Source: Herbidospora yilanensis (lineage in GTDB: Bacteria; Actinomycetota; Actinomycetes; Streptosporangiales; Streptosporangiaceae). Taken from it: DNA of 64,000 nt. The first letter of the stretch is position 1, and the number at the start of each line of letters is the position of its first letter. A program made the translations under genes and the position numbers. This document shows positions 15,265 through 49,136 of this stretch, piece by piece. The notes beneath the pieces were generated by a model. That model saw only the letters and a list, made by a program, of their open reading frames with translations, did no database searches and was not told where the DNA came from. Location: contig NZ_BBXE01000013.1 of the NCBI RefSeq assembly GCF_001570565.1, positions 264,984 through 328,983 on the forward strand, given 5' to 3'.

Positions 15265-15282
15265 CCGGTAACTCGCAGGAAG

Positions 15283-15317
15283 AAGGTGGGGAGGCCCCCG
15301 TGGCCCCCCACCTTTTT
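15283..15317 (+). terminator. Rho-independent terminator
   Basis: AAGGTGGGG-AGGCCCCCGTGGCC-CCCCACCTT is followed by TTTCC, 19 nt after the stop at 15264. Confidence 0.6.
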
Positions 15318-15377
15318 CCATTCCGGCAGGCGGCGGAAAGGCGGACAAGCGCCTTTCCACCACCTGTGCGGCACTAT

Positions 15378-34678: not shown

Positions 34679-35120
34679 GGGTCTTCAGGGCGCGGTCGGC
34701 GTGGTCGGTCATCATGACCTCGTTGTGGATGACGTCGAGGACGCGGAAGTCGGTGCCGATGACGAAGGTGATCCGCCGGGTGACGAACGGCCCCACGGCG
34801 ACCGAACGGCGCACCCCCATCTGCTTGGCCACCAGACCGTCCTCGTCGGACAGCAGCGGGTAGTCGAGCCGGTTGGCCTCGGCGAACATCTTCTGCCGTT
34901 TCACCTTGTCCTTGCTGATCCCGACGCGGACCGCTCCAGCGGATTTGAATTCGGCGGCCAGGTCACGGAAGTGACAGGTCTCGGCGGTGCACCCGGAGGT
35001 CATCGCCGCCGGATAGAAGAAGAGCACCACGGGCCCTTCCTTGAGGAACTCGCTCAGGCGACGGGTCTCCCCGTTCTCGTCCGGAAGCGCGAAGTCCGCG
35101 ACGAGTTCACCGATATTCAT
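34662..35120 (-). CDS. bcp: Thiol peroxidase / peroxiredoxin (Bcp, AhpC-TSA family)
   Basis: VVLFFYPAAMTSGCTAETCHFRD contains the peroxidatic and resolving Cys in the Bcp arrangement. Confidence 0.9.
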   Translation of the reverse strand: MNIGELVADFALPDENGETRRLSEFLKEGPVVLFFYPAAMTSGCTAETCHFRDLAAEFKSAGAVRVGISKDKVKRQKMFAEANRLDYPLLSDEDGLVAKQMGVRRSVAVGPFVTRRITFVIGTDFRVLDVIHNEVMMTDHADRALKTLRDRA

Positions 35121-35734
35121 GCCTCACTTTCTACCAGTGCGGGGTGTCGGGAATCATCCGCCCGAACCACCACATCCGCCCAATCCTGCGGCCGGACCTC
35201 CTCGGCGTACCGCTCGAAGGCGGGCAGGGTCCATTTCTCCTCGGTACGCCGCTCCAACGCCTTCTTCGACAGGCTCAGGTGGACGGAGAAGTCGATCGGC
35301 AACCCCTGCCCGAGGAGCAGCGGCCCGTCGAGGACGACGACGGCGTTCTCCGGGAGGACCTGGTAGGGCGCGCGGGTGGCCCGGTCTCTGACCGGGTCCC
35401 ACAACGAGGGGACGACCCGGCCGGTGCCGCCCGGTTCGAGCGGCTGGAGGACCTCCCGCGTCAGGCCCTTCACGTCGAGCCAGCCGTCGTAGTAGGAGTC
35501 GGGGTCCTGCCTGCCGAACTCGTAGCGGAGCGACGCGGCTCTGAGGAAGTCGCGGGCCGACACCCTGAGGACGTGCCGGTGGACCCTCAGCCGCGCCGCG
35601 ATCCGGTCGGCCAGCTCCCCCGGCCGGGCCGCGTCGGCACCGTCGACGGCCACTCGCACCCACCCGGGCCGTTCGGAGATCGTCTCGGCCAGTTCCGTGA
35701 CGAGCCCCTCGACGGAGACCGGTCGTACACCCAT
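35117..35734 (-). CDS. Uridine-kinase-like protein with a degenerate P-loop
   Basis: Internal start MGVRPVSVEGLVTELAE in track ORF 35117..36061-. VAVDGADAARPGELA sits where the Walker A (GxxGxGKS) would be. The stop overlaps the bcp start (ATGA). Confidence 0.5.
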   Translation of the reverse strand: MGVRPVSVEGLVTELAETISERPGWVRVAVDGADAARPGELADRIAARLRVHRHVLRVSARDFLRAASLRYEFGRQDPDSYYDGWLDVKGLTREVLQPLEPGGTGRVVPSLWDPVRDRATRAPYQVLPENAVVVLDGPLLLGQGLPIDFSVHLSLSKKALERRTEEKWTLPAFERYAEEVRPQDWADVVVRADDSRHPALVESEA

Positions 35735-35789
35735 CAGGCCATCATGCCCCGGTGGGGAAGTCTGCTGACAATATGGGGGCAGTACCCCC

Positions 35790-38102
35790 ATGTATGGGGG
35801 GAACCTCCCCCCAATACTGCTGGACGTGAGCGATTCGGCCGACCTTCCGCAGTTCCCCGGTGTCCTGGACACCGTGCGCGCCTGGCTCTCCTCCGCCGAT
35901 CCCCGGCCCCTCGTGCTGACCGGGCCGCCCGGCAGCGGCACCGCGGCGTTGCTGGCCCGGCTCGGCGAGCACCTCGCCGGAGAGCCGTCCGTCGTCGTCC
36001 GCGACGACCTCTGCGACGACCCCGCCCGGTTGCCGGCGCGGCCGGGTCTCCGCGTGATCACCCGGGCCCGCCGCCGGCACGACGGGCTGCTCTCCCTTCC
36101 GGTGCGGCCCCTGCGCGGCCACGGCCCCGACAGCGAGGTGGTCCGGTACTTCCTGCGGTGCCTGCGCCGCCACGACCCGACCGCCGTCGTCGCGGCCGAG
36201 GACCTGTCCCAGGTGAGCGAGGTCTGCGCGGCCTCGTTCGGGCTGTCCGCCGACGTCGACCTGCTGGCCGGGCTGGTCGCCCGCTACGGCCTGGCGGCCG
36301 TGCGCGACGCGGTCGCCGAGGACCACCAGCGCACCCGGCTGGCCGGGCTGCTCGGCGACGCCCACGGCCACCACGACCTGAGCGGCGACGAGATGGTCGT
36401 GCTGGCCTCGATCCTGGCGCTGCCGGGCGGGGCGAGCGAGAACGTGCTGCGCCACTCGTTGCCGCGGTGCGACATCGGCGGGCTGACCGCCTCCCTGGTC
36501 GAGCGCGGCCTGGTGGTGCGCGCCGAGCCCCGGCGCTGGCACCTGCGGGTGAGCGGCTTCCCGGCGGCGAGCTGGTGCGCCGCGCGGCCGGAGGTGTCGC
36601 TCGACGCGATCCGCCAGGCGCAGGCCGACTACCTGTCGGGCCAGGTCGCGCGGCTGGCCGCGGGTGTCTTCACCGACCACCAGCGGGCCGTGTTCGCCGA
36701 GTTCGACCACGAGCGGCGCAACCTCAACGCCGCCGTCGCCGAACTCGTCGGCGGCGGCCGGTACGCCCAGGCCGTCGCCCTCATGCGGGACGCCCTGCCG
36801 TTGCTGGCCCGCACCTCCGGCGTGGCCGGGCTGCTGCCGCACCTGCTGCCGGTCATCCGCAGGTACGCGCCCGCGACCCCGGCCGAACGGCACACGTTGT
36901 CGCGGCTGGCCGTGCGGGTGTTCGCGGCCGGAGGGGAACAGGAGGCCGCCGCCGTCTGCTTCGACGCGCTGCCGGAGACCGACCCGGACGTGCCGCTGCT
37001 GGCGGCCCTCGTGCACGCCGTGCCCGACCCGGAGGAGCTGGCCGCCTGCGTGCGGACCGCCCGCGAACAGGGCGACGCGGTCCGGCTGGGCGAGTCGGTC
37101 GGCGAGTACGTCGCCTGCCTGGCCCGGCTGCGCCGGTTCGACCGCGCCGACGCCGAATGCCGTACCGCCCTGTTCGAGGCGATGTGCGGCGGGGACGACC
37201 ACGCCGCGGCCTCGTTGCTGCTCTGGCGCGCGGCCGCCGCCACCGCCCTGGCCACCGGCGACAGCCGCCTGTACGTCGAACGGGCCCTCGCCAAGCTGCT
37301 GCCCCTCGGCCCGGCGGCGGCCATGTCGGCCATCGCCGCCGTGGTCGACGGACGCCACCAGCGCGACCTCCAGCAGAGCGCCGTCGACCTGGCGATGGTC
37401 GCCGGGTCGCTCGGCCGGGCCTGCGCGGCCGAGACGGAGCGTCCGGTCGAGGTCGGCGGGCTGCTGACCGGGCGCATCGGCGTCCGGCCGCTGCGCCGCT
37501 GGGTGACGGCGGGAGAGGGGGTCGACCTCGCCGACCTGCTGTGCGAGATCCTCCAGCGCAGGTTCGGCGACGACCCGGCCGCCCCCCGGCCGGTGCCGCA
37601 GGGCTCCGTCGACCCGAGGGTGCTGCGGGAACGGTCGCGGCTGACCGCCCGCGAGTCGGAGGTCGCCGGGCTGGTCGCGACCGGCCTGACGAACAAGCAG
37701 ATCGCCCGCCGGTTGCGCATCTCCGAGTGGACGGTGGTCAACCACCTGCGCCAGGTGATGCGCAAGCTCGACTGCGCCTCCCGGGTCCAGGTCGCCCGCT
37801 GGGTGCACGATCTGGAGGCCGGGTCAGCCCGTCTCGAACCGGCCGACGGCGACGGTGTGCAGCAGGGCCGGGTCGACCAGCGAGGCGAAGTCGGCCGTGA
37901 CGAGGTCGGCGTCCAGCGCGGCCAGCAGCCCGAGGTGCCGGTCGACGTACTCCGGGGGGTCGATGCCGCACGAGAGGAGTTCCGCGTACTGCTGGGTCAC
38001 GGCCAGGGTGGACTCGTACAGTTCGGGCGCGGCGGCGAGCATGCGGTCCCTGACCCGCGTGACCAGCCCCCCGTCGACGTCACCCTCGCGGAGCTGCGTT
38101 AA
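35790..38102 (+). CDS. Large LuxR-family regulator (LAL-like, degenerate P-loop) with a ~90 aa tail antisense to the next gene
   Basis: The N-terminus LVLTGPPGSGTAALLARL is Walker-A-like but lacks the Lys. A helical-repeat middle region follows. The C-terminal LuxR HTH reads LTARESEVAGLVATGLTNKQIARRLRISEWTVVNHLRQVMRKLDCASRVQVARWV. The frame stays open to 38102. Confidence 0.75.
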   Translation: MYGGNLPPILLDVSDSADLPQFPGVLDTVRAWLSSADPRPLVLTGPPGSGTAALLARLGEHLAGEPSVVVRDDLCDDPARLPARPGLRVITRARRRHDGLLSLPVRPLRGHGPDSEVVRYFLRCLRRHDPTAVVAAEDLSQVSEVCAASFGLSADVDLLAGLVARYGLAAVRDAVAEDHQRTRLAGLLGDAHGHHDLSGDEMVVLASILALPGGASENVLRHSLPRCDIGGLTASLVERGLVVRAEPRRWHLRVSGFPAASWCAARPEVSLDAIRQAQADYLSGQVARLAAGVFTDHQRAVFAEFDHERRNLNAAVAELVGGGRYAQAVALMRDALPLLARTSGVAGLLPHLLPVIRRYAPATPAERHTLSRLAVRVFAAGGEQEAAAVCFDALPETDPDVPLLAALVHAVPDPEELAACVRTAREQGDAVRLGESVGEYVACLARLRRFDRADAECRTALFEAMCGGDDHAAASLLLWRAAAATALATGDSRLYVERALAKLLPLGPAAAMSAIAAVVDGRHQRDLQQSAVDLAMVAGSLGRACAAETERPVEVGGLLTGRIGVRPLRRWVTAGEGVDLADLLCEILQRRFGDDPAAPRPVPQGSVDPRVLRERSRLTARESEVAGLVATGLTNKQIARRLRISEWTVVNHLRQVMRKLDCASRVQVARWVHDLEAGSARLEPADGDGVQQGRVDQRGEVGRDEVGVQRGQQPEVPVDVLRGVDAAREEFRVLLGHGQGGLVQFGRGGEHAVPDPRDQPPVDVTLAELR

Positions 38103-39089
38103 CACCCGGGTGATCGCCTCGGCGGCGGCGGGGGCGCGGCCGGCGTCCACGAAGCCGCTGACGATGAACACCCCGCCGGAGAAGAACGGCATGAACCGGG
38201 CCTCGATGCCGTAGCTGGCCCCCATCCGGCCGCGCAGTTCGCGGTTGAGCAGGGAGTCGGGGCCGCCGCCGAGCAGTTCGCCCGCGACCCGGGCCGACGG
38301 CCAGCGCGGGTCGAGCCGGTCGACCGCGAAGCCGCCCAGCACGAGCCGGGTCTGGGGGCCGCCCCGGCCCGGCCGGTGCGTGCGGCCGGGCGTGTCCGCC
38401 GGGAGCGGCGGGACGTCGGCGAGGGGCAGGTCGTCCCCGGCGGGCACGCCGGCGAACGCCTTCGCGGCGGCGTCGGCGGCGCCGGTCCCGGCCAGGTCGC
38501 CGGCCACGACCAGGGTCATCCGGGCGGCGCCGGGCACGACGGCGGCGACGTCGTCCAGGGTCAGCGTGCGCCAGACCGCCTCGGTGCCGCCGAGCGGGCG
38601 GCCGTACCGGGAGCCGGGGGCCAGCACCGACTCGTGCACGAGTTTGTTGCCGAGCGCGATCGGGTCGTCGGACTCCATGGCCCGTTCGGCCACGACCTGG
38701 CGGCGCAGCGCCTCGAACGAGCGGGCCGTCGGCGTGAAGGGGTGCACCATCGCGGCCATCGCCTCGAACAACCGGGGCAGTTCGGCGGCCGGGCAGTCGC
38801 CCATGACGATCGGGCCCCGGTGCCCGCACCGCGTGGTGACCATCCCGCCCGCCAGGGCGAGGTCGCCGACGGTCCCGTCGCGGTGGTGCGGCGCGTCGGC
38901 GTTGAGCAGCGCCGCGTACGCCGCCACCACCCCCTCGGTCTCCGGGCGTTCGACCGCCGTGGTCGGCAGCAGGATCGACAGGGCGGCGGTGGCGACGTGC
39001 CGTCCGGGCATGTCGGCGAGCAGCACCCGCAGGCCGTTGTCCAGCGTGAACGTCTCCGGCTGCGGGAAACGCCAGGTCACAGGATCCAT
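37824..39089 (-). CDS. M16-family peptidase-like subunit lacking the HxxEH zinc motif
   Basis: Internal start MDPVTWRFPQPETFTLDNGLRVLLADMPGR in track ORF 37824..39449-. It has the two-lobe M16 fold signature but no HxxEH. It overlaps the upstream M16 gene by 13 nt. Confidence 0.75.
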   Translation of the reverse strand: MDPVTWRFPQPETFTLDNGLRVLLADMPGRHVATAALSILLPTTAVERPETEGVVAAYAALLNADAPHHRDGTVGDLALAGGMVTTRCGHRGPIVMGDCPAAELPRLFEAMAAMVHPFTPTARSFEALRRQVVAERAMESDDPIALGNKLVHESVLAPGSRYGRPLGGTEAVWRTLTLDDVAAVVPGAARMTLVVAGDLAGTGAADAAAKAFAGVPAGDDLPLADVPPLPADTPGRTHRPGRGGPQTRLVLGGFAVDRLDPRWPSARVAGELLGGGPDSLLNRELRGRMGASYGIEARFMPFFSGGVFIVSGFVDAGRAPAAAEAITRVLTQLREGDVDGGLVTRVRDRMLAAAPELYESTLAVTQQYAELLSCGIDPPEYVDRHLGLLAALDADLVTADFASLVDPALLHTVAVGRFETG

Positions 39090-40258
39090 GAGGGTTCTCC
39101 GGCGGCGTGGAAGGCGACGACCGACGGCCGTGCCATCGGCCCGGCGGCCAGCGCGGCCACCTCGGCGTTGGTGACCCGGCGGACGGCGTCGAGCCGCGTG
39201 GTGACCCCGGCGGCGTCGCCCGACCAGGCGTGTTCCCGGCACAACTCCTCGGCGAGTGTGCGGGCGGCCCCGAGGGCCCCGAGTTGTTCCCTGATGCGCA
39301 GGGCCTTGGCGGCGGCCAGCACGTCGGGCGGCAGCCCGTCGCGGGCCACGGCGGCCAGACGGGCGGCGACGTCCCGTTCGAGCGCGGCCAGGTCGGCCGA
39401 GGCCGGGACCGACAGCTTGACCAGGCCGATCGACGGGCCGAGCGCGCACCGGGCGTGCTGGCCGAGCGCGCCGAGCAGGCCGGGCCGCGAGCCGAGCACC
39501 GACCAGGGGGCGCTGGCCAGCGCCGCCATCACCACCTCGGCGGCGGCCGATCCCGGCGGCAGGGCGAAGGTCAGCCGCACCATGGACGTCGGCTGGCCCT
39601 CCTCGACGTCCTCCCGCGCGCCCAGCGGCTCCCCGGTGACCGGCGGCGGGGCCGGCCGGCCCGAGGGAAACCCGGCCAGGTGGTTCCCGGCGATCTCCAC
39701 GGCCGCGTCGGGGTCGGCCGCGCCGACGACCGACACGACCAGCCGGTCGGCGCCGTAGTGGGCCTCCACGAACGTGGCCACGTCGTCGGGCGTCACGGCG
39801 GCGACCTCGGCGGGGTCGCCGACCGGCGGGCGGCCCGCCGGGTGGTCGCGCCCGAATAACAACCGCAGGCCGCGCCGCAGCCCCGACCCGAACCGGCCGG
39901 GTTCGTCGCGTTCGCGGATCTCCTCCAGCACGATCCGGCGGTGTCCCGCCAGCACGTCCCCGGTCACGCCGCGCCGGCCGCGCCGCACCCGGTCGCCGGC
40001 CTCGGCCAGCATCGCCGGGAGGGTGACCGCCGGGCCGGTCGCCACGTAGTTCGTGGACTCGTAGCCGGTGGTGGCCTGCGCCGAGCCGTTCTCGGACATG
40101 ACGTGCTCGACCACGTGAGCCAGGCCCGACCTGCCGATGGGGTCGTGCAGGGAGCCCGCGCCGTGCCAGGCGTTGACCGCGACGAAGCCGAGCCCCGGGT
40201 CGGGCCGCACGACCAGGGTCGCGCCGCCCGGCAGCCGGCGGGTGACCAGCCCGTCCAT
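39077..40258 (-). CDS. M16-family zinc metallopeptidase (pitrilysin/insulinase type)
   Basis: Internal start MDGLVTRRLPGGATLVV in track ORF 39077..40792-, with the inverted zinc motif GLAHVVEHVM (HxxEH). The start shares one base with the ABC gene stop (TGATG). Confidence 0.8.
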   Translation of the reverse strand: MDGLVTRRLPGGATLVVRPDPGLGFVAVNAWHGAGSLHDPIGRSGLAHVVEHVMSENGSAQATTGYESTNYVATGPAVTLPAMLAEAGDRVRRGRRGVTGDVLAGHRRIVLEEIRERDEPGRFGSGLRRGLRLLFGRDHPAGRPPVGDPAEVAAVTPDDVATFVEAHYGADRLVVSVVGAADPDAAVEIAGNHLAGFPSGRPAPPPVTGEPLGAREDVEEGQPTSMVRLTFALPPGSAAAEVVMAALASAPWSVLGSRPGLLGALGQHARCALGPSIGLVKLSVPASADLAALERDVAARLAAVARDGLPPDVLAAAKALRIREQLGALGAARTLAEELCREHAWSGDAAGVTTRLDAVRRVTNAEVAALAAGPMARPSVVAFHAAGEPSWIL

Positions 40259-41994
40259 CACGCGCCCACGGGGGCGGGGGCCGCCTGGGCGTGCACGAAC
40301 GCCTGGTAGGCGGGGCTGGCCGACGACAACGTGCCGTGGTCGCCCACGGCGGTGACGCGGCCGGCGTCGACGACCACGATCGTGCCGGCCGCGGCGACCG
40401 TCGACAGGCGGTGGGTGACCATCACCACGGCCCGGTCGCGGCCCAGGTCGGCGAGCAGGTCGGTGAGCCGCCGTTCGTTGACGCCGTCCATGTGCGCGGT
40501 CGGTTCGTCGAGCAGCAGGATCTCGGCGTCGGTCAGCAGGGCGCGGGCGATGGACAGGCGCTGCTCCTCGCCGCCGGACATCTGGTCGCCCGCGCCGAGC
40601 ACCGCGTCCAGCCCGGCGGGCAGGGCGCGCACGGCCTGCTCCAGGCCGACGTCGCGCAGCGCGGTCCACAACTCGTCGTCGGACGGGGCGTCCGACCGGC
40701 CCAGCGTCAGGTTCTCGCGCACGGTCATGGACAGGATCGCCGACCCCTGCTCGACCAGGGCGACCCGGCGGCGGGCCTCGGCTGTCGGCCACTCGTGGAG
40801 GGGCGCGCCGAGGAGCTCCACCCGCCCGGCGTCGGTCTCGACGAAGCCCTCCACCACGTTGAGCAGAGTCGACTTGCCCGCTCCCGACGGTCCGACGATC
40901 GCCAGCACCCCGGTGCGCGGCACCTCAAGAGACACCCCGTCGAGCACCGGCTTGCCGCCGAGCGACACCACGACGTCCGAGAGCCGCAGCGCCGGCGCGC
41001 CCGGCGTCACCTCGGGCGCGCGGGCCGCCCCGGCCGGTTCGGTCTCCGCGCCGAGCACCTCGTCGACCCGCCGCGCGGCGGCCTTGCCGACCGCGATCCT
41101 GCCCGCGCCCTGCGCCAGCGCCATCAGCGGGTTGACGAGCTGGAACAGGTACATCAGGAAGGCGATGAACGCCGTGGTCTCCAGCGCGCCCGAGGCCAGG
41201 CGCACCCCGCCCACGGCGAGCACGCCGATGATGGCGACCTGCTGGCCCAGGCCCATCAGCGGGCTGATCGCCGCCTGGGCCCGCGCCGAGCGCACCGCCG
41301 ACGCCGCCGCCTCGCCGATCTCGTTCTCCAGCGGGGCGATGGCCCGGTCCTCCGCCCGGTACGCCTTGACCGTCGTCACCATCGTGAACACCGACTGCGC
41401 GGCCTGGGCCAGCCGGCCGAGCGCGGCCTGCTGCGCCTCGGCCGCCCGGCGCATGCCCGCCAGGAAGGCCCTGATGGCGATCGCGGCCACGACGAACGTG
41501 CCGACCGTCACGGCCAGCATCACCCAGTCGAGGATGCCCATCACGATCAGGTACGCCGTCACCATCACCGCCGAGACCGGCATGACCGTGACGCCCGTGT
41601 CGGTGATCGCGCGCATCTGGGCGGCGTCGGGCCCCATCCGGGAGACCACCTCGCCCACGCCGATCCGCCGGATCACCGGCACCCGCAGGCGCACCGCCCG
41701 GCGCACCACGGCCAGGCGCACGTCCTCGATGGCCCGTTCCCCGGCCGCGCTCAGCAGGTAGGACGACCAGCCTCCGGCGAACGCCCCGGCCAGCACGATC
41801 ACGACGAGCTGCGCCACCGGCCAGACGACGTCCCCGCCCGTCCCGCCGATCACGCCCAGGATGCGGGCGATCAGCAGCGGCGTGACGATCCCGGCCGCGG
41901 CCGAGACCAGGGCGAGCACCACCGAGGCGGCCAGCCGGCCCCGCCGCGCCCTAACCGACCGGGACAACAACCCGAGTGTCGGCGACTCCGCCAT
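40258..41994 (-). CDS. ABC exporter, fused permease and ATPase (type I exporter)
   Basis: Six N-terminal TM helices. Walker A is GPSGAGKST, the signature is MSGGEEQRLSIARAL and Walker B is ILLLDEPTAHMD. Confidence 0.9.
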   Translation of the reverse strand: MAESPTLGLLSRSVRARRGRLAASVVLALVSAAAGIVTPLLIARILGVIGGTGGDVVWPVAQLVVIVLAGAFAGGWSSYLLSAAGERAIEDVRLAVVRRAVRLRVPVIRRIGVGEVVSRMGPDAAQMRAITDTGVTVMPVSAVMVTAYLIVMGILDWVMLAVTVGTFVVAAIAIRAFLAGMRRAAEAQQAALGRLAQAAQSVFTMVTTVKAYRAEDRAIAPLENEIGEAAASAVRSARAQAAISPLMGLGQQVAIIGVLAVGGVRLASGALETTAFIAFLMYLFQLVNPLMALAQGAGRIAVGKAAARRVDEVLGAETEPAGAARAPEVTPGAPALRLSDVVVSLGGKPVLDGVSLEVPRTGVLAIVGPSGAGKSTLLNVVEGFVETDAGRVELLGAPLHEWPTAEARRRVALVEQGSAILSMTVRENLTLGRSDAPSDDELWTALRDVGLEQAVRALPAGLDAVLGAGDQMSGGEEQRLSIARALLTDAEILLLDEPTAHMDGVNERRLTDLLADLGRDRAVVMVTHRLSTVAAAGTIVVVDAGRVTAVGDHGTLSSASPAYQAFVHAQAAPAPVGA

Positions 41995-42970
41995 CGGACC
42001 CTCCCCTCGCGCGCACGGCGGCGAAGATCTCGCGCAGGTCGCGCATGCACTCGTCCTGGCCGTACATGTTGTTGACCGAGCTGGGGTTGACGACCACCTC
42101 GTCCACCCCCAGGTCGTGGTACTTGGCGATCTCGTCGGCGATGTGGTCGGGGTCGCCGTAGACGTACACCCCGGCCTGGACGAGTTCCCTGGCGCCCGAC
42201 ACCGGGTCGGAGGCGTCCACGTCGAGGCCCGCCCTGCGCAGCATGTCGGTGTAGTGGGGGGCCGACAGGTGGCTGATGCTGCCGTACTGGGCCAGCAGGT
42301 TGGCCGACCGGCCGGGCCGGGCGACGGCCGCGTGCACGACCGACACGATGCGCGGCGGCGGCTGCACCCCGGCCGCGCCCTGCGCGACGGCCGGCATGAC
42401 GACGTCCTCGATGTACTTGAGCGGCGTCAGCCACGTCATCGCGAGGTCGCCGCAGCGGCCGGTGACCCGGGCCATGGCGGGCCGCAGCACCCCCGCGCCG
42501 ATCTCCACCGGCGGGCAGTCCATCGGCGGCAGCGCGGCGTCGACGGTGAAGTGCTCTCCCTTGTGCCGCACGTGCTCGTTGCGGGCCAGCCGGCGGGCGA
42601 CGTCGATGAACTCGCCGACGATCGCGGCCGGTCTGGCGTACGGCTCGCCGCGCAACTGCGTCACGTACTGCGGGTAGGCGGCGCCGTAGCCGATCGCCAC
42701 CGGTTGTCCCATGAGCCGGGCCAGCGACCGGGCCTGCAACGCCGCGTCGTACGGGTGGCGCAGCACGATCAGCCCGACGGCCATGCCGATCGAGATCCGG
42801 CAGCCCGTCCCGGCCAGGTAGGCGACCGCCGGGTGGGACTCGATCCGCAACGACTGCCCGAGCCACAACCGCGCCGCGCCGATCTCCTCGGTCAGCCGGC
42901 CGTACGGGACGATCGTGTCCGGGTCGGTCGGCTGGTGCGGGAACATGAACGACACCTTGCGCGAGCTCAC
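41951..42970 (-). CDS. LLM-class (luciferase-like) flavin/F420-dependent oxidoreductase, candidate LanJ-type dehydroamino-acid reductase
   Basis: The C-terminal ~339 aa of track ORF 41951..43954-. The GTG start overlaps the upstream stop (GTGA), giving VSSRKVSFMFPHQP... (first beta-strand of the LLM TIM barrel). It continues ...LWLGQSL...IGMAVGLIVLRHPYDAA...GDPDHIADEIAKYHDLGVDEVVV. Confidence 0.75.
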   Translation of the reverse strand: MSSRKVSFMFPHQPTDPDTIVPYGRLTEEIGAARLWLGQSLRIESHPAVAYLAGTGCRISIGMAVGLIVLRHPYDAALQARSLARLMGQPVAIGYGAAYPQYVTQLRGEPYARPAAIVGEFIDVARRLARNEHVRHKGEHFTVDAALPPMDCPPVEIGAGVLRPAMARVTGRCGDLAMTWLTPLKYIEDVVMPAVAQGAAGVQPPPRIVSVVHAAVARPGRSANLLAQYGSISHLSAPHYTDMLRRAGLDVDASDPVSGARELVQAGVYVYGDPDHIADEIAKYHDLGVDEVVVNPSSVNNMYGQDECMRDLREIFAAVRARGGSDGGVADTRVVVPVG

Positions 42971-43938
42971 GACGCCACCTCCACCAGCGGGCTGTCGGCG
43001 TTGCGGTGCGGCGCGAGCGGGTCGGCGTTCGCCTCGGCGAGCGCCTCGGCGACGGCCTCGGCCAGGTCGCGGCCGTCGAACAGGTGCCGCGCCACGCCGT
43101 CGGCGACCGCCATCGTGCGGTGCTGGCCCAGGCTCATGCGGTCCCATCCGGGCCGGGTGTCGCGCGGCTCCCAGCCGTACGCGACGCCGTCGGCGATCGG
43201 GCTGGTCATCACCGAGTGGGCCGGGTTCAGGCCGGGCAGGTTCCGCACCGCCGCGACGAGGCCGCCCACGGCGTGCCACGACTCCTCGGTCAGGTAGACG
43301 ACGATCGCGTCCCGCCTCGGATACTGGTCGGCCTTCGCCAGCACCTTCGCCCGGTAGGTCGCCCCGGCGCCCTCCAGCCGACTCAGCACCGCGTGCCACA
43401 CGGCGGGCGCCATCGACGGCTCGTCGACGTGCAGGTAGATCCGCAGCATGTGGCCGCCGGCCCCGTGGCCGCCCGCCGAGCCGTTGACCAGGAAGAACCC
43501 GGGAGAGAGCGTCGGCCTGATCGCGGGCAGCTCCAGCGTGGTGCGGGTGCCGATCTCCGGCAGCGGCGTCGGGCTCTCGCCCCCGGGGATGCGCAGGCGC
43601 ACCCGGCCGACGTCGAAGAGCACGTGCCGGCCGAGCGGGCCGTCGATCATGGCCGACCGAACGACCGCCGGGGTGCGGCTGGTGCGGTGGGGGGTGGCCT
43701 CCCGCAGGAGGTCCTCGAAGTCGTAGTCGCGGCGCGGGTCCCACTCGCCGGTCCTGACGGCCGAGCCGCTGTGCCAGTGGCGGTAGAGCACCGGCCCGAG
43801 GTCCTGGCGCAACCGGGTGCGGTTGTCGCCCGTGACCGTCTCGTCCCCGACGGTCACCGACCGGGTGTCGGGGTCGAGGCGCAGGTCGCCGAGCAGGTGG
43901 TCGAGCCGGTCGAGGAGACCCTGGTGGGCGATGGTCAT
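42967..43938 (-). CDS. HopA1-effector-family protein, candidate phospho-Ser/Thr lyase (LxmY/TvaD-like)
   Basis: Internal start MTIAHQGLLDRLDHLL in track ORF 42967..44727-, 323 aa. It sits between an APH-type kinase and an LLM reductase, as in class V lanthipeptide and thioamitide clusters. Motifs such as MLRIYLHV, YRAKV and PRRDAIVVYL match my memory of the HopA1 family, but this was not verified by search. Confidence 0.6.
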   Translation of the reverse strand: MTIAHQGLLDRLDHLLGDLRLDPDTRSVTVGDETVTGDNRTRLRQDLGPVLYRHWHSGSAVRTGEWDPRRDYDFEDLLREATPHRTSRTPAVVRSAMIDGPLGRHVLFDVGRVRLRIPGGESPTPLPEIGTRTTLELPAIRPTLSPGFFLVNGSAGGHGAGGHMLRIYLHVDEPSMAPAVWHAVLSRLEGAGATYRAKVLAKADQYPRRDAIVVYLTEESWHAVGGLVAAVRNLPGLNPAHSVMTSPIADGVAYGWEPRDTRPGWDRMSLGQHRTMAVADGVARHLFDGRDLAEAVAEALAEANADPLAPHRNADSPLVEVAS

Positions 43939-43940
43939 GA

Positions 43941-45047
43941 TCAGTTCTCTCCAAGGCCGATGGTGGGGGCGAACTTCTCCGGCGTCGTGAGCGCGTTGCG
44001 GCCGATCCCGGCCATGCCGCGCTCCACCGCGCTGAGCCGCGCGCCGTGCACGGCGCCCGCGAGCAGCCGGTCGAAGAAGTGCCACCCGATGTAGCCGGTG
44101 GCCCGCACGGCCAGGCCCTCGTCCGGCTCGGCGACCTCCCGGTAGCCCTGCCAGAAGCGGCGGATGTGCTCGCGCACGGCCGACAGGTGCCGGTCGCCCG
44201 CGGCGACGATCGCCTCGTGGGCGGCGCCCGGCGACAGGCCCGTGTCCAGGTCGAGCTCGCGGAACATGCGCGCCACCGCGTGGTGCACGAACTCGCCCGC
44301 GAAGGCCCCGACGTCCCGGGCCGGGTCGTGGTGCCGGAACTCCTCCCAGTCGATGACGTACAGGTCGTCGCCGGAGCACAGGAACTGGTCCAGGCGCAGG
44401 TCGCCGTGGGTGACGGTGGCGGGGGCGGCGGCCGAGACCCGGTGCAGCGCGGCGAGCGCCTCGACCAGCACCTTGTCGTGCTGGAGCAGCGCCCACGCCT
44501 CGACCTCGCCGCCGCTGCAGTTGGCGTAGTCCTCGGGGCTCAGCGCGTAGAAGGCGTTGGCCCGGCGGTCGTCGGCCGACTCGGGCAGGTCCTCGGCGCG
44601 CGGCAGCGAGTGCACCTCGCCCAGCACCCGGCCCATCCGGTGGGCCAGCTCGACGTCGAGCTCCCCGGCCGCCAGCAGGTCGGAGGCGGCGCGGGAGTCC
44701 GGCACGTACTCGAAGACCAGCAGGCATTCGCCGGCGTCGGCGCCGTGGAAGGCCGGCACCCGCAGCTCGGCCGTCGCACGGCCGGCGATCAGCCGCTGGA
44801 AGGCCAGCACCCGGTCCATCCGGGCGGCGGCGTGCGCGCGGTCCCCCCGCAGGCGCTTGACGAACAGGTCGGGTCCCTCGGCGGTCGGCACCAGCCAGTT
44901 GTCGTTGCGGCCGAGGAAGCCGCGCATGCCCTCCACGATGGGCGTGGCCCCGCTGAGCGAGGCGACCGCCTGGACGAACTCCTCCGGGCGCGACACCGGC
45001 CGGGCCGCGACCAGCCGGGTCGTCTGTGTTTCCTCTTTCACGTCCAT
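43941..45047 (-). CDS. APH/choline-kinase-fold phosphotransferase, candidate RiPP Ser/Thr kinase (LxmK/TvaC-like)
   Basis: The catalytic loop is VTHGDLRLDQFL and the metal-binding segment is YVIDWEEF. The nucleotide-lobe segment reads DLFVKRL...LLVFEYVP. The start is taken at MDVKEETQ (M18 of track ORF 43941..45098-) and is uncertain. Confidence 0.75.
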   Translation of the reverse strand: MDVKEETQTTRLVAARPVSRPEEFVQAVASLSGATPIVEGMRGFLGRNDNWLVPTAEGPDLFVKRLRGDRAHAAARMDRVLAFQRLIAGRATAELRVPAFHGADAGECLLVFEYVPDSRAASDLLAAGELDVELAHRMGRVLGEVHSLPRAEDLPESADDRRANAFYALSPEDYANCSGGEVEAWALLQHDKVLVEALAALHRVSAAAPATVTHGDLRLDQFLCSGDDLYVIDWEEFRHHDPARDVGAFAGEFVHHAVARMFRELDLDTGLSPGAAHEAIVAAGDRHLSAVREHIRRFWQGYREVAEPDEGLAVRATGYIGWHFFDRLLAGAVHGARLSAVERGMAGIGRNALTTPEKFAPTIGLGEN

Positions 45048-45246
45048 GCGCCGAAATCTATGGACGCGGAAAGGCCCCGCGACATCCCAGGAAAGCACCG
45101 GCAGCAGGCATATGGCAGATGCCTGACAGATCCTTGCCGGCCGGTGTTCCCGAATGGCAGTCGGCCGGTGACGCGGGCGCGCAAATCCTCGTCATTTCGC
45201 CAGGACCGGCGGCCTAGTTTCCTTTGTTCCGAAGGAAGGAGATCTC

Positions 45247-45387
45247 ATGTCCAGCGAACTCATCGCGGGATACGCGAACTACGCCAGCACCGAATCGGTC
45301 CTGAGCGAGAACACGACCGCCGAGTGGTGGCCGATCACGTCGTACACCGTCACGCTCTCCACGACGACCACCTCGATCTGGATCTGA
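45247..45387 (+). CDS. RiPP precursor peptide 1 (46 aa)
   Basis: Not in the track because it is under 60 aa. SD GGAAGGAGA lies 6 nt upstream. The sequence is MSSELIAGYANYASTESVLSENTTAEWWPITSYTVTLSTTTTSIWI. It shares its leader with four downstream paralogs. Confidence 0.8.
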   Translation: MSSELIAGYANYASTESVLSENTTAEWWPITSYTVTLSTTTTSIWI

Positions 45388-45397
45388 GGGGCGCGCC

Positions 45398-45538
45398 GTG
45401 TCCGAGCTGATCGCGGGTTACGCCAATTACGCCAGCACCGAGGCGGTGCTCCAGGAACGTTCCGAGGCCGGCCGCTGGATCGAGTGGACCCTCTGGTTCA
45501 CCGTCACCATCTCCGTCACCCCCACCTCCTCCCTCTGA
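45398..45538 (+). CDS. RiPP precursor peptide 2 (46 aa, GTG start)
   Basis: (M)SELIAGYANYASTEAVLQERSEAGRWIEWTLWFTVTISVTPTSSL. GAGGGG lies upstream, and the ORF starts 10 nt after the peptide 1 stop. Confidence 0.75.
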   Translation: MSELIAGYANYASTEAVLQERSEAGRWIEWTLWFTVTISVTPTSSL

Positions 45539-45559
45539 ACCTGCTGAGAAAGGAAGACC

Positions 45560-45709
45560 ATGTCCGAGCTGATCGCCGGTTACGCCAACTACGCCTCCAC
45601 CGAGGCCATCCTCCAGGAGCGGCAGCTCGCCGCCCGTGAGCCCGAGACCGGCCTGTTCACGCTCACCATCACGATCTCGCTGACCATCACGGTCACGATC
45701 AGCCTCTGA
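45560..45709 (+). CDS. RiPP precursor peptide 3 (49 aa)
   Basis: MSELIAGYANYASTEAILQERQLAAREPETGLFTLTITISLTITVTISL. The SD is GAAAGGAAG. Confidence 0.8.
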   Translation: MSELIAGYANYASTEAILQERQLAAREPETGLFTLTITISLTITVTISL

Positions 45710-45722
45710 CCAGGAGGTCCCG

Positions 45723-45872
45723 ATGCACGAGCTCGTCGCCGGATACGCGAACTATGCCTCGGCCGAGGCGATCCTGCGGGAACAGGCCGCCGGGCGTGTT
45801 CTCGAAGCGGGTCTCTTCTTCTCGGTGACCTTCAGCTTCACCCACAGCAATTCCATCTCCTTCTCCATCTGA
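45723..45872 (+). CDS. RiPP precursor peptide 4 (49 aa)
   Basis: MHELVAGYANYASAEAILREQAAGRVLEAGLFFSVTFSFTHSNSISFSI. The SD is AGGAGG. Confidence 0.8.
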   Translation: MHELVAGYANYASAEAILREQAAGRVLEAGLFFSVTFSFTHSNSISFSI

Positions 45873-45890
45873 CCGAAAGGAAACGGGCGA

Positions 45891-46046
45891 ATGAACGACC
45901 TCATCGCCGGATACGCCAACTACGCCTCCACCGAGGCCATCCTGCACGAGCGGCAGATCGCGAGCCGCGACGCCGAATCGATCAGCGCGACCGTGACGGT
46001 CACCTGGACCCTCACCGTCTCCTGGTCCTACTCCTGGTCCTACTAG
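45891..46046 (+). CDS. RiPP precursor peptide 5 (51 aa)
   Basis: MNDLIAGYANYASTEAILHERQIASRDAESISATVTVTWTLTVSWSYSWSY. The SD is GAAAGGAAA. Its TAG stop shares the CTAG palindrome with the convergent LuxR gene stop. Confidence 0.8.
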   Translation: MNDLIAGYANYASTEAILHERQIASRDAESISATVTVTWTLTVSWSYSWSY

Positions 46047-48934
46047 GAATCGCGCAGCACCGCGGCGTGGTCCCCCAGCGCCCCCCGGTTGGAAAGCCCG
46101 GTCTTGGCCAGCAGGCTGGCCACGTGCTTCTCCACCGTCCGCGGTGAGATGAAAAGTCGTCGGCCGATCTCGACGTTGCCGAGCCGTTCGGCGAGCAACA
46201 TCAGAACCTGGTGCTCGCGCACGGTCACGCCGAGGTTGCGCAGTTCGCCGGGCACCCCCTCCCGCCCGGGCCGACGGTACGACACCGCCGCCCCCGCCTG
46301 GCGCAGCAACGTGCGGCAGGCCGCCGTCACCGCCGTCACGCCCGCCTCGTGGAAGTGGTCCTCGGCCGCCCGCAACCACACCACCGGCTCGCCCCATCCG
46401 TCGGCCAGCGCGGCCTCCGCGACCAGCCGCGCCCCCAGGTGCGCCGCCTGCGGGAACGGCTCCCCGGCCGCCCGCGCCTCCGCCATCGTCCGCCCGGCCG
46501 CCGCGTGCTCGCCCCGCCCGCCCAGCAACACCGCGCGGGCGAGCAGCAGGAAGTGCCGGTTCCACCGCAGTTCGGCGGCCGGCTGGGCGTGCACGGCCGC
46601 CCAGTCGTCGAGGGTGAGCTCGCCGGCGAGCGCGCCCAGCAGCACGGCCAGGCCGTAGCGGCCCGTCATGTAGTAGAGCGTGGGATGTTCGTCCTCCCAC
46701 GCGCGTGCCCTGGCGAGCAACTCCGCCGCCTGGTCGCGGTCCTCCTCCAGCAGGGCGCAGAACGCCTGGCAGAGGCCGTACACGACCGGGGTGTGCAGGC
46801 TCTGCTCACCGCCCCACCTGCGGAAATCGGCCAGGGCGTGCTCCATGGCCTCGCGCCGCCCCTGGTGGGCGGCCAGTGTCGCCTGCGCCATCAGCAGATA
46901 CTGGGTGTAGGCCGTGTGCCCCAGCCGGATCGTGGTCTCGACGCACGCGGCGGCGGTCTCGGCGGCGCTCTTGTACTCCGCCCGCAGCACCCGCGTCATC
47001 ACCAGGGACGCCTCCGCGCTGTGCACCAGGCTGATCGCGCCCGCCTGGGTGGCCGCCCGCAGCACCTCCTCAAGCGGATCGCTCTCCCCGGTACGCATGT
47101 TGTGGTTGGCCGCCAGCCGGTACATCGCCCGCAACCGCCACAGGCTCAGCCCGTGCACCTCGGCGATGGCCTTCATCCGGGTCAGGCACCGGTCGGGCTC
47201 GCCGAACCCGTGCACCCTGGTCAGCATGGCCAGCCGCTCCCACGCCTGGCAGGCCACCTCGGGCAGCGGCAGCCGCTCGGCCACCTCGGCGGCGCGTCGC
47301 GACAGCGCCTCGGCGGCGGCCATCTCGGCCGGCCCGGCTTCGTTGACGCCGTGGTCGGGGAACAACAACTGCGCCTCGATCACGTCGATCGCGGCGCCGC
47401 GCGCCTCGTCGGGCAGGCTCTCCAGCGACCGCCGCACGGCCGCCACGTGGGCGCGCCCGGCGGGCAACTCGCCGATCTCGGCGGCCACCCACGCCAGCTT
47501 GGTGCGCAGGTCGACCTCCTGCCACAGCCCCATCGACAGGTCGTCGGACGCGCACTCCCTGGCCAGCTCCAGCGCCCGGTCGGCCCGGCCGCCCTCGGTC
47601 AGCGCGTGCAGCAACCGCTGGAGCGTGTGGGCCCGCGCCGGGGCGGGGCCGCCCTCCTGGAGCCGGTCGGCCCGTTCGAGCAGGGTCGCCGCGACGTCGG
47701 CGGCGCCGCCGTTCAGGTAACGTTCGCCCGCCTCGGCCAGCAACGCCCCGGCCGTGTGGACCTCACCGGCCGTCAGCCGCAGGCTCGCGGCGATCTGGAG
47801 CCACTCGTCCGGGAGCCCCGGATACAGGCGTTCGACCGACCGGGCCGCCTGGCGGGCCAGCCGGGCCCGCTCCGCCGGGATCAGCTCCGCCGACAACGCC
47901 TCGGCGGTCAGGGCGTGGCGGAAGGCGTACCATTCCCCGGCCGGTTCGTCGGGCACGACGAGCCGCGCCGTGGTGGCCGCCCGCAGGATCGCCTCGACCC
48001 CCCGGTCGTCGAGGCCGGAGACGTCCTGGATGACCGGCACCGGGAAGCGGTTCCCGAACACCGCCCCGGTCAGCAGCAGCTCGTGCGCCGCCGGCACGAG
48101 CGTCGCCATGCGCGCCGCGATCCCGCGCGCCGCCGAGTTCGGCCCCCGCGCGCCCGGGTCGTCTTTCAGGGCGTCGACGAACTCCTCGACCAAATACGGC
48201 ACGCCGTCCGTCTCGGCCACGAGGCGGTCCATCACTCCGTCCGGCAGCACGTCCGGCAACTCGTCCGGCCGTGCCAGGCAGGCCGCGACGAGCCGGCGGG
48301 TCTCGTCGGGCGACAGCGGCGGCAACTCGACGACCTCCGCCACCTGGCGGCGGGCGCAGTCGTCGGCCACGGTCCGCGCCGGGCCGGCGTGCCCGCGCAG
48401 GTTCACCAGGAGCAACGCCGGCACGTCGGCGAGGTTGTCGGCCAGGTATTCGACCACGCCCAGCGTGCCCGCGTCGGCGTCGTGCAGGTCCTCCAGCACC
48501 AGCACGCCGCCGCGCGACTCCCGTCCGAGAACGGTCAGGAGCCGCAACACGGCCTCGGCGAGGATGACCGCCGACTCCAGCCGCCGCGCGCCCCCCTCCT
48601 CCCGCCACTCGGGCACCAGCGTCGTCAACGCAGGGAGATAGGGCCGCAACAGCGGATCGTCGGGCGGCCTGCGCGACCGGGCGAGCGAGAACAACGCCTC
48701 GCTCAGCGGCTTGAACGGGATGTCCGCGCTGACCGCGCTACCCCGCCCGCGCAGGCTCACCAGCCCCAGGTCACCGGCCCGCCGGAGCACCTCCGACGTC
48801 AACCGGGACTTCCCGATGCCGGGATCGCCGACCAGGAAGACGGTCTTCCCGCGACCGTCCCCGACCTGCTCCAGACACCTGTCGAACAGCGCTTTCTCGG
48901 GTTCCCGCCCGATCAGGACCGGCGACCTGGACAC
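46043..48934 (-). CDS. LAL-type LuxR-family regulator (AAA ATPase + TPR-like repeats + LuxR HTH)
   Basis: GTG start gives VSRSPVLIGREPEKALFDRCLEQVGDGRGKTVFLVGDPGIGKSRL (Walker A), and Walker B is VLVLEDLHDAD. The C-terminal HTH reads LTVREHQVLMLLAERLGNVEIGRRLFISPRTVEKHVASLLAKTGLSNR. Confidence 0.85.
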   Translation of the reverse strand: MSRSPVLIGREPEKALFDRCLEQVGDGRGKTVFLVGDPGIGKSRLTSEVLRRAGDLGLVSLRGRGSAVSADIPFKPLSEALFSLARSRRPPDDPLLRPYLPALTTLVPEWREEGGARRLESAVILAEAVLRLLTVLGRESRGGVLVLEDLHDADAGTLGVVEYLADNLADVPALLLVNLRGHAGPARTVADDCARRQVAEVVELPPLSPDETRRLVAACLARPDELPDVLPDGVMDRLVAETDGVPYLVEEFVDALKDDPGARGPNSAARGIAARMATLVPAAHELLLTGAVFGNRFPVPVIQDVSGLDDRGVEAILRAATTARLVVPDEPAGEWYAFRHALTAEALSAELIPAERARLARQAARSVERLYPGLPDEWLQIAASLRLTAGEVHTAGALLAEAGERYLNGGAADVAATLLERADRLQEGGPAPARAHTLQRLLHALTEGGRADRALELARECASDDLSMGLWQEVDLRTKLAWVAAEIGELPAGRAHVAAVRRSLESLPDEARGAAIDVIEAQLLFPDHGVNEAGPAEMAAAEALSRRAAEVAERLPLPEVACQAWERLAMLTRVHGFGEPDRCLTRMKAIAEVHGLSLWRLRAMYRLAANHNMRTGESDPLEEVLRAATQAGAISLVHSAEASLVMTRVLRAEYKSAAETAAACVETTIRLGHTAYTQYLLMAQATLAAHQGRREAMEHALADFRRWGGEQSLHTPVVYGLCQAFCALLEEDRDQAAELLARARAWEDEHPTLYYMTGRYGLAVLLGALAGELTLDDWAAVHAQPAAELRWNRHFLLLARAVLLGGRGEHAAAGRTMAEARAAGEPFPQAAHLGARLVAEAALADGWGEPVVWLRAAEDHFHEAGVTAVTAACRTLLRQAGAAVSYRRPGREGVPGELRNLGVTVREHQVLMLLAERLGNVEIGRRLFISPRTVEKHVASLLAKTGLSNRGALGDHAAVLRDS

Positions 48935-48935
48935 G

Positions 48936-49136
48936 TTACTTGTGCGACACCGAGACGGGGTTGACGGGGTCGCCCTCAAGTCCGAGCGCGATGGTCGCGC
49001 CCGCGGCGGTGTCGGGCGACTTAAGGATCAGGGTCGCGCCCGCGGTCAGCCCCGCCAGCACGAGCGCCCGGGTGAGCGGCCTGATGTTGGCCAGCCGCGC
49101 GCCGGCCGCGAGCACCGGATTCTGCTCAGTGTTCAT
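48936..49136 (-). CDS. Small hypothetical protein (66 aa) translationally coupled to the LanM-like gene
   Basis: MNTEQNPVLAAGARLANIRPLTRALVLAGLTAGATLILKSPDTAAGATIALGLEGDPVNPVSVSHK. The ATG overlaps the LanM-like stop (ATGA) and GC3 is high. It has one hydrophobic segment and no Cys. Confidence 0.55.
   Translation of the reverse strand: MNTEQNPVLAAGARLANIRPLTRALVLAGLTAGATLILKSPDTAAGATIALGLEGDPVNPVSVSHK

Follow-up and report, generated by a model that had tools for sequence, protein, structure and literature searches.

A stretch of 64,000 nucleotides from Herbidospora yilanensis (contig NZ_BBXE01000013.1, positions 264,984 to 328,983; called the window below) contains a gene cluster in which five short precursor peptides, P1 to P5, with cores that alternate Ser or Thr with hydrophobic residues, are encoded next to a kinase, a HopA1-type lyase and a luciferase-like oxidoreductase (LLM). 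Judged by its gene content, the cluster is best explained as a branch of the class V lanthipeptide (lanthidin) pathway that has dispensed with Cys and would make linear and extremely hydrophobic peptides. We put the probability that multiple alternating D-residues are made in these peptides, by dehydration and subsequent reduction of Ser and Thr, at roughly 0.5. By analogy with known peptides a membrane-active antibacterial function seems likely; a function as beta-helical channel is proposed more tentatively.

The precursors are encoded by tandem open reading frames (ORFs) of 46-51 codons on the forward strand (45247-46046), and a purine-rich ribosome-binding site can be read in the sequence 5-10 nt upstream of each. 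P1 (45247..45387) combines the leader MSSELIAGYANYASTESVL... with an irregular core of the 'WPIT' type (...WWPITSYTVTLSTTTTSIWI), and P2 (45398..45538), which has a GTG start, carries a core (...WTLWFTVTISVTPTSSL) with Ser or Thr at 7 of 8 alternating positions. The cores of P3 (45560..45709; aliphatic type, (T)GLFTLTITISLTITVTISL) and P4 (45723..45872; GLFFSVTFSFTHSNSISFSI) each comprise 8 strict repeats, and that of P5 (45891..46046; Trp/Tyr-tail type, SISATVTVTWTLTVSWSYSWSY) comprises 11. With the cores of P3 and P5 assumed to be TGLFTLTITISLTITVTISL and SISATVTVTWTLTVSWSYSWSY, respectively, the calculated monoisotopic masses are 2524.216 for unmodified P5, 2326.100 for P5 with 11 dehydrations and 2348.272 with 11 reductions as well, and 2107.239, 1945.144 and 1963.285 for the same three states of P3. 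The strict runs, in which Ser or Thr is each time followed by a different kind of residue, reach the C-terminus in P3, P4 and P5 and are the three longest such runs in the six frames of the window, the next-longest (7 and 6 dipeptides) being Pro/Arg-rich out-of-frame artefacts. All five precursors end on I, L or Y, none contains Cys, and Lys, Asp and Glu are absent from their repeat regions. The core sequences and repeat counts listed in a preliminary description of this DNA, including the irregularity of P1, thus agree with the translations, as does its remark on the missing residues and the hydrophobic or aromatic ends. Since P1-P5 have no Cys, the formation of lanthionine, methyllanthionine or aminovinylcysteine is impossible and the products are not lanthipeptides.

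The leaders share the pattern M-x-(E/D)-L-(I/V)-A-G-Y-A-N-Y-A-S-(T/A)-E-(A/S)-(I/V)-L. Among the paralogues they are 62-84% identical at the DNA level with numerous synonymous differences, as would be expected of old, diverged paralogues. P2 is identical to an H. yilanensis protein (P0008) and P4 to a representative protein (P0135), P3 is 96% identical to its orthologue (P0001), and P5 differs from its H. solisilvae orthologue by synonymous changes only. P1 also has an orthologue in H. solisilvae, and its WPIT motif recurs in a Nostoc paralogue. Throughout the orthologue comparisons the changes are mainly synonymous and the replacements in the core stay within their residue class, with S and T exchanged at the Ser/Thr positions and W, L, V, Y and A swapped at the hydrophobic positions. 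The alternation is therefore under selection and not an artefact of slippage.

The enzymes are encoded on the reverse strand, across a divergent intergenic region (45099..45246) that, considering the gene arrangement, presumably holds the promoters of both the kinase operon and the precursor array; a scan of this region for the sigma-70 consensus found no sites, which is unsurprising for an actinomycete. In this DNA of about 72% G+C the genes were called by third-position GC (GC3). The kinase gene (43941..45098) encodes an LxmK-type Ser/Thr kinase, i.e. a class V lanthionine synthetase subunit (NF038156 equivalog, 363.9 bits at a cutoff of 315), that is conserved in all related loci. The gene for the HopA1/LanY-type phospho-Ser/Thr lyase (42967..43938; full-length PF17914 match, E=6.6e-41; frame assigned via GC3) begins 3 nt past the kinase stop and is followed by that for the F420-type LLM, the candidate LanJC reductase (41951..42970; PF00296, 1e-32). 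A fused HopA1-LLM protein, as a 667-aa ORF (41951-43954) could suggest, was rejected, as GC3 resolves two genes in different frames. Downstream lie an ABC exporter whose membrane and ATPase domains are fused (40258..41994; PF00664, PF00005) and two M16 peptidase subunits, of which one has the HxxEH zinc motif (HVVEH) and is presumably the active leader peptidase subunit (39077..40258), and the other lacks it and is presumably an inactive partner like LxmP1 (37824..39089). Such an active/inactive pair, LxmP2/LxmP1, has been reported for lexapeptide (PMC8068269).

Neither LanD (PF02441) nor LanX (a second protein of the APH/kinase fold) was found among the window ORFs scanned or in the related loci, and no radical SAM gene was found among these window ORFs. 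A 314-aa ORF (35117-36061, reverse strand) was considered as LanX candidate and dismissed, having no Pfam or NCBIfam match and no conservation in the related loci. With LanD and LanX missing, the window cluster thus appears to be the class V lanthipeptide gene set minus exactly its Cys-dependent parts. The enzymes that had been assumed beforehand have their counterparts here: the kinase is an LxmK equivalog, the lyase is a HopA1 protein, and the candidate reductase is an LLM of the F420 type, the family to which LxmJ and Cao12 are reported to belong.

The LLM is central to the argument. Its best NCBIfam matches are all F420-dependent LLM subfamilies (top match TIGR03564/MSMEG_4879, 98 bits versus a cutoff of 234), and its nearest PDB structures are the F420-dependent methylene-H4MPT reductases (Mer). 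LxmJ and Cao12, of the LanJC class of dehydroalanine (Dha) reductases, were reported with the same MSMEG_4879 domain (PMC8068269), by which the LLM can be likened to them as a candidate member of a LanJC-like F420-type family. Moreover, it is the best-conserved enzyme of the cluster (66-80% identity across genera versus 48-75% for the kinase) and in each complete locus lies next to the kinase and HopA1. Of its more distant homologues, one with 57% identity belongs to another kinase/HopA1 cluster and one with 47% to a LanB/LanC cluster. LanJC enzymes are known to reduce Dha at two sites in rosin A1 (RosJ; PMC12291118) and at one site in lexapeptide, where LxmJ yields D-Ala (PMC8068269), and MatR1 is needed for the formation of D-aminobutyrate (D-Abu) from dehydrobutyrine (Dhb) at one site (PMC11162475).

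The leaders are class V-like. The complex of CaoK and CaoY performs eight successive, leader-dependent dehydrations in vitro and recognizes its leader through Met/Leu-24, Phe/Tyr-20 and Tyr-17 (PMC9486802); L4, Y8 and Y11 of P1-P5 match the spacing of the Leu-24/Tyr-20/Tyr-17 consensus, although the score against the LxmA_leader model (NF038146; 16.5-16.8 bits) is below its cutoff of 25. The first repeat is immediately preceded by a conserved (P/A/N)-(E/D), similar to the A-P-E motif at which class V precursors are cleaved, which suggests that cleavage at this site would give cores of 16-22 residues, most of them starting with Ser or Thr. In the pathway that we propose, the leader (L4-x3-Y8-x2-Y11 ... 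E) would dock on the kinase/lyase pair, the kinase would phosphorylate the Ser or Thr that occupies each second position of the core, and elimination of the phosphate by the lyase would give Dha and Dhb. The LLM would then hydrogenate many or all of these to D-Ala and D-Abu, the M16 heterodimer would remove the leader after the (P/A/N)-(E/D) site and the ABC transporter would export the mature peptide. The products would be 16-22-mers in which small D-residues alternate with L-Val, Ile, Leu, Trp or Tyr, aliphatic at the N-terminus and rich in Trp and Tyr at the C-terminus, a design that would suit a membrane-inserting beta-helix like that of gramicidin A. What we infer here is how far dehydration and reduction go, that the residues are D-configured, where the leader is cleaved, and which fold and activity result.

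The same organization is found in other actinomycetes. A word-indexed search yielded 14 relatives and a scan of 185,579 species genomes yielded 9 loci; an exhaustive profile hidden Markov model search of 1.84 billion representative proteins recovered about 22 members, and alternating members only. Alternation is kept across some 45 related precursors from 12 distinct actinomycete loci, in Herbidospora, Streptosporangium, Sphaerimonospora (two), Rhizohabitans, Embleya, Streptomyces (two), Actinacidiphila, Flexivirga, a metagenome-assembled genome and a metagenomic contig; two of these loci are incomplete, namely the decayed one of Actinacidiphila soli and a 3-kb contig. In every complete locus the kinase-HopA1-LLM trio stands beside 2-6 precursors. 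The ABC exporter and the M16 pair accompany it in the window and in 9 of the 10 other complete loci, if one counts Flexivirga, which has the M16 pair and merely a distantly related ATPase (L019); Streptomyces HPF1205 has neither. Of the 38 precursors analysed, 27 contain at least 7 strict repeats, mostly extending to the C-terminus, with a Ser:Thr ratio of 132:148 at the alternating positions and with V, I, W, L, Y, F and A between them. The aliphatic type recurs across the loci (e.g. LLSITITITITITITI), and so does the Trp-tailed type (e.g. SVSLSLSVSLSVTYSWSWTW), which is present in nearly every complete locus and was not found in S. cavernae. In the decayed A. soli cluster (L015:3154-6778) an intact-looking Trp-tail precursor remains beside fragments of the kinase, HopA1 and M16 genes, the LLM being missing. 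Common to the Embleya, Logan and Pediococcus clusters is a module in which a small protein with a PLDc_N domain is combined with an ABC ATPase and a membrane protein (L002:2836-4767, L007:15219-17140, L028:13011-14808), which is absent from the window cluster and may serve immunity.

The composition of the cores is in line with the proposed product. Charged residues are essentially absent. When 24 regular cores are divided into halves, 7 of the 104 hydrophobic positions on the N-terminal side are aromatic, compared to 64 of 115 on the C-terminal side (Fisher p = 1e-15), which bears out the Trp/Tyr-rich termini noted in the preliminary description. Gramicidin A has an aliphatic N-terminus and a C-terminus of L-Trp and D-Leu, and the aromatic polarity of the cores matches this. 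We estimate that a beta-6.3 helix of 20-22 residues would measure about 16-17 A, so that a head-to-head dimer could span a bilayer.

Relatives outside this family extend the picture. Streptomyces sp. NBC_01190 (L017:4210-11841) has a 57%-identical LLM beside a kinase, HopA1, an ABC transporter, a LuxR regulator and two precursors with a divergent leader (MAADLMAGYVAYTNAPDIL...) and an alternating core (SISVTVSVTYSWTATY). It adds a 663-aa RiPP (peptide made on the ribosome and modified after translation) radical-SAM C-methyltransferase (TIGR03975, 691 bits), a family that we take to be the one that C-methylates polytheonamides. The 47%-identical LLM sits in a class I LanB/LanC cluster, which ties this clade to dehydroalanine chemistry whichever dehydratase is used.

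Orthologues of the window peptides from H. solisilvae are listed in the RiPPER supplementary dataset of Eyles et al. 2021 (PMC8153245), in which short peptides beside a HopA1/phosphotransferase pair were networked at 40% identity; peptides of Herbidospora sp. NEAU-GS84 that are 96-100% identical to P3 and P5 belong to its network 1. The same core design occurs under other leaders in networks 1A and 9. Nostoc linckia has such cores under a double-Gly leader (SVSVTVSVTLTVTYSWSWTW, LLSITITITITITVTL...), and network 9 comprises Firmicutes (Bacillus subtilis, B. amyloliquefaciens, several staphylococci, Streptococcus devriesei, Lactobacillus iners and L. timberlakei) as well as Nocardiopsis, Rathayibacter and Xylanimonas (example core TSLSLSVSVSYSVSWSWSVSF). 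The text of that paper calls the cyanobacterial cores 'highly variable' and mentions neither alternation nor D-residues.

A precursor of the network-9 type (MKDATLLSGYTSYTSPIDVQRSAVEESQLGNVG-TSISLSVSYSASVSWTFSWSF) is encoded on the 19.5-kb Pediococcus pentosaceus plasmid pMD136 (NC_001277) and its relatives, such as NZ_CP137629 (L028 and L022, respectively; operon e.g. L028:9834-17688). On pMD136 the operon combines the alternating precursor with HopA1 and an LxmK-like kinase (176 bits); it further encodes a serine hydrolase, two ABC systems, a small PLDc_N protein and, in place of the LLM, a Zn-dependent protein of the alcohol dehydrogenase family (Zn-ADH). It is the sole biosynthetic-looking operon on this conjugative plasmid. 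In a search of 72,556 plasmids the best non-self match of the Zn-ADH (42% identity over 92% of its length) was the pMRC01 gene directly after lanM-lanT-lanM, which is the position of ltnJ in the lacticin 3147 operon, and LtnJ is the prototype of the reductases that convert Ser to D-Ala. Homologues on staphylococcal plasmids came next (37%). Two further plasmid matches were set aside, one in Pseudanabaena belonging to a class II LanM cluster and one in Actinomyces oris to an unrelated locus. This Zn-dependent class of reductases has been described as LanJA (PMC8068269). A LanJA-type enzyme in the one Firmicutes member of network 9 that was checked, this plasmid, may be viewed together with the share of Ser at the alternating positions, which is 86% in network 9, 47% in the LLM family and 29% in Nostoc; the first figure, to which LLM-positive Rathayibacter members also contribute, fits the reported restriction of LanJA to Dha. 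Presumably pMD136 is the plasmid linked to pediocin A production in strain FBB61, and if this association holds, pediocin A may be the alternating-core peptide of pMD136. The published co-occurrence table lists the Rathayibacter members of network 9 as LLM-positive and LanD-negative and the Firmicutes members as LLM-negative, and does not tabulate the Zn-ADH (PMC8153245).

In Nostoc linckia z18 (L026:8283-20186) the gene directly after HopA1 encodes an aldo-keto reductase (AKR; PF00248, 34 bits versus a cutoff of 24). This cluster also contains a C39-PCAT exporter, two peptidyl-prolyl isomerases and an Rce1-like protease; a faint precomputed match of its peptides to PF27893 (GRASP_targ_2) was not reproduced in our own scan and was dropped. 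Despite unrelated leaders, Nostoc cores are identical to those of Embleya at 16 of 20 positions and to those of Sphaerimonospora at 14 of 16, so that either leaders have been swapped or the cores have strongly converged on a single design. Homologous kinase/lyase pairs and the same core design thus go together with oxidoreductases of three unrelated families; none of the complete related clusters lacks a reductase, and in Firmicutes (Pediococcus) the LLM is replaced by an unrelated family of Dha reductases. The choice follows the availability of the cofactor, with F420 in actinomycetes and NAD(P)H elsewhere. Nothing else available argues as strongly as this displacement of the reductase by unrelated families that the chemistry being conserved is dehydration with subsequent reduction. 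It is conceivable, though doubtful, that all these systems form an ancient RiPP superfamily of Actinomycetota, Bacillota and Cyanobacteria, pediocin A included, that makes ribosomal gramicidin-like D/L beta-helical channels through exhaustive dehydration and stereoselective hydrogenation by a lineage-specific reductase (F420 LLM, Zn-ADH or AKR). Were this so, the near-identical cores on unrelated leaders would reflect a tightly constrained channel design.

Several observations weigh against alternating D-residues throughout. The LLM scores under the trusted cutoff of every F420 subfamily model, so that we infer its cofactor and reaction. In a given peptide the characterised LanJC enzymes reduce only 1-5 sites, and Dhb was left unreduced by LxmJ (PMC8068269); the 8-11 hydrogenated sites per peptide that our proposal entails would be unprecedented. 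Pro, TTTT runs or breaks of phase occur in P1, P2 and several orthologues, and the D/L-alternating interpretation fits only part of each peptide set; the pattern that had been put forward for the peptides as a set is therefore retained for the regular cores and not for the irregular or Pro-containing paralogues. About 5 of some 60 family peptides carry Cys, and the expectation that orthologous clusters would be alternating and Cys-free is borne out for the family as a whole, with a reservation as to its second part. The exceptions are two peptides of S. amethystogenes and one of Flexivirga, with two Cys each (L001:9506-9824; L019:6572-6721), mostly at 'hydrophobic' positions, and two metagenomic peptides (P0156 and P0157) that end in ...SWSWSCG(P). 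The Cys-containing paralogues might form thioethers, perhaps spontaneously, and may be a link to the true class V lanthipeptides. Among the Firmicutes members the Zn-ADH has been verified for the Pediococcus plasmid only. Finally, cyanobacterial clusters with an AKR have much more varied cores, which makes the correlation loose; as a marker of alternating cyanobacterial cores the AKR is no more than suggestive and was rejected.

The same enzymes could also leave most of the dehydrated residues as they are. If the LLM reduced one or a few sites only, the products would be linear peptides rich in alternating Dha and Dhb. Being rigid and electrophilic, they might act at surfaces or react with a target. 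Such an outcome has a minor but real chance, considering that the known LanJC enzymes are site-selective, as seen in lexapeptide, rosin A1 and the MatR1 product, and that Dhb-rich linear RiPPs exist in the form of the linaridins. However, where a core has 8-10 Ser, as in SVSLSLSVSLSVTYSWSWTW, a stable secreted product would have to carry just as many reactive Dha residues, which is implausible on chemical grounds, and it would be odd for an enzyme of minor tailoring to be the best conserved of the cluster and to be swapped for an analogous one where F420 is unavailable. The free exchange of S and T between orthologues, moreover, is conservative for D-Ala and D-Abu and not for Dha and Dhb. The dehydro residues might instead be consumed, in cross-links to Trp, Tyr, His or the backbone, in occasional spontaneous lanthionines of the Cys-bearing paralogues or by oxygenation, with another role for the LLM and constrained products as the outcome. 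The paralogues with two Cys or a C-terminal SCG(P), the clustering of Trp and Tyr beside the alternating Ser/Thr positions and the fact that LLM enzymes include flavin monooxygenases, the cluster LLM being below all curated F420 cutoffs, would agree with this. We nevertheless consider it unlikely, in view of the lack of any cyclase, LanX, LanD, radical SAM enzyme or P450 conserved in the family, the absence of nucleophilic side chains other than Tyr and Trp from most peptides and the LtnJ-like Dha reductase in the place of the LLM in Pediococcus, which points to hydrogenation.

Still further from the proposed pathway, the peptides could be unmodified or lightly modified amphipathic beta-strands that act as surfactants, morphogens or amyloid formers in the manner of SapB and the chaplins. 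Alternation of polar and hydrophobic residues is the classic signature of such strands, the producers are sporulating actinomycetes, and some cyanobacterial relatives alternate N, Q, G or K and not just S and T. Yet the polar position is Ser or Thr in 280 of 280 cases (by construction, as strict runs were counted), N, Q, D and K are almost absent from the actinomycete cores, the leader is class V-like with the kinase, lyase and reductase always adjacent, and a leader peptidase and an exporter are present rather than a Sec signal, all of which makes this explanation very improbable.

The surroundings of the cluster are less uniform. Almost every related locus has, at the flank of the cluster, a homologue of the LuxR-family regulator (35790..38102, forward strand; approximate boundaries; GerE domain close to the C-terminus). 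In the window this ORF runs about 280 nt into the 3' end of the M16 gene 37824-39089, which is convergent with it, and also overlaps the upstream 314-aa ORF; its GerE domain ends near 37800. Convergent with P5 lies a gene for a large regulator with AAA_16 and LuxR domains (LAL-type; 46043..48979, reverse strand), which was seen in the Herbidospora and Sphaerimonospora loci only and whose membership of the cluster is uncertain. Syntenic with it, again only in these two genera, is a LanM-like gene (49133-51634, reverse strand) that was rejected as a core component, being absent from the other distinct loci. Its product of 833 aa has internal deletions with respect to the 949-aa homologue of Sphaerimonospora, keeps the WC...CHG zinc-ligand motifs and has no Cys-bearing precursor nearby. 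Elsewhere in the window, and unrelated to the precursors, positions 26278-33005 (reverse strand) hold a 1573-aa DUF3686/DUF7902/AAA ATPase gene followed by that of a 669-aa protein without clear domain. The region 8000-16000 has a lower G+C content (0.66-0.69 versus about 0.73) and a strong AT skew, which may reflect horizontal acquisition, and encodes MscL, a xylose-isomerase-like protein with a TAT signal and a 1145-aa GSDH/PKD/CBM6/FIMAH protein.

If the proposed pathway is correct, it constitutes a second ribosomal route to alternating D/L backbones, mechanistically unrelated to radical-SAM epimerisation, in which the position of each D-residue is encoded simply as a Ser or Thr codon. Gramicidin-type beta-helical channel peptides would then be genetically programmable and easily diversified. 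It would also explain why a whole branch of 'class V lanthipeptides' lacks Cys, and would provide a testable identity for the bacteriocin encoded by pMD136 and for the loci related to it in Bacillus subtilis, staphylococci and Lactobacillus iners. With partial reduction, too, what remains is a conserved, multi-phylum and uncharacterised RiPP family with an unusually regular core.

Among the known systems the class V lanthipeptides (lexapeptide, cacaoidin, rosin A1 and massatide) are closest. The LxmK-type kinase, HopA1 (LanY), F420-type LLM (here a candidate LanJC), M16 pair P1/P2, ABC transporter and LuxR regulator are shared, as is the leader motif L-x3-Y-x2-Y of the type-A LanA precursors. 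In contrast, the window cores are devoid of Cys and built of regular (S/T)-hydrophobic repeats, the cluster has no LanX and no LanD, and several precursor types occur per cluster. The Cys-free branch was overlooked because the published survey of class V precursors took only Cys-containing ORFs (PMC9486802). A full-text literature search, in which subscription journals were outside the coverage, retrieved no paper that interprets these peptides, so that an earlier publication is possible.

Polytheonamides have alternating D- and L-residues and form beta-helical membrane channels. With these and other proteusins the window peptides share the ribosomal origin and, as proposed here, the alternation. 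The proteusins differ in the epimerisation of any residue by radical SAM enzymes, in their NHLP/Nif11-type leader and in a length of 48 residues, compared to 16-22 residues and a class V-like leader in the window. There is no epimerase here, the radical SAM enzyme of Streptomyces sp. NBC_01190 being a C-methyltransferase, and D-centres would arise only from Ser and Thr by elimination and hydrogenation. Gramicidin A resembles the proposed products in length (15 versus 16-22 residues), in being all-hydrophobic, in its strict alternation, in its aliphatic N-terminal half and in a C-terminal half that repeats L-Trp with a small D-residue. It is, however, made in Brevibacillus by a nonribosomal peptide synthetase and capped by formyl and ethanolamine groups; the resemblance is one of function and architecture and not of family membership.

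The peptides of networks 1A and 9 (PMC8153245) have the same core design and an adjacent kinase and HopA1, in network 9 under a related leader (..GY.xYT.P..), and differ in their leaders otherwise (double-Gly in Nostoc), in the Zn-ADH or AKR and in the serine hydrolase or C39-PCAT. The nearest conceptual precedents are the Cys-free peptide of bicereucin and the hypothesised NpnA products, in which Cys-free, Ser/Thr-rich precursors likewise meet a dehydratase and a Dha/Dhb reductase. For bicereucin a linear product with D-residues has been shown. For NpnA of Nostoc punctiforme, according to a later summary (PMC5808125), linear D-amino-acid peptides from Cys-free precursors were proposed by Yang & van der Donk in 2015. 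Both systems employ dehydratases of the LanM type or others and LanJA or LanJB reductases, and have scattered D-residues with no beta-helix design noted. What is new with respect to the Nostoc punctiforme proposal is the strict alternation, by which that chemistry would yield a D/L-alternating backbone, the conserved set of several peptide types, the spread over three phyla and the displacement of the reductase.

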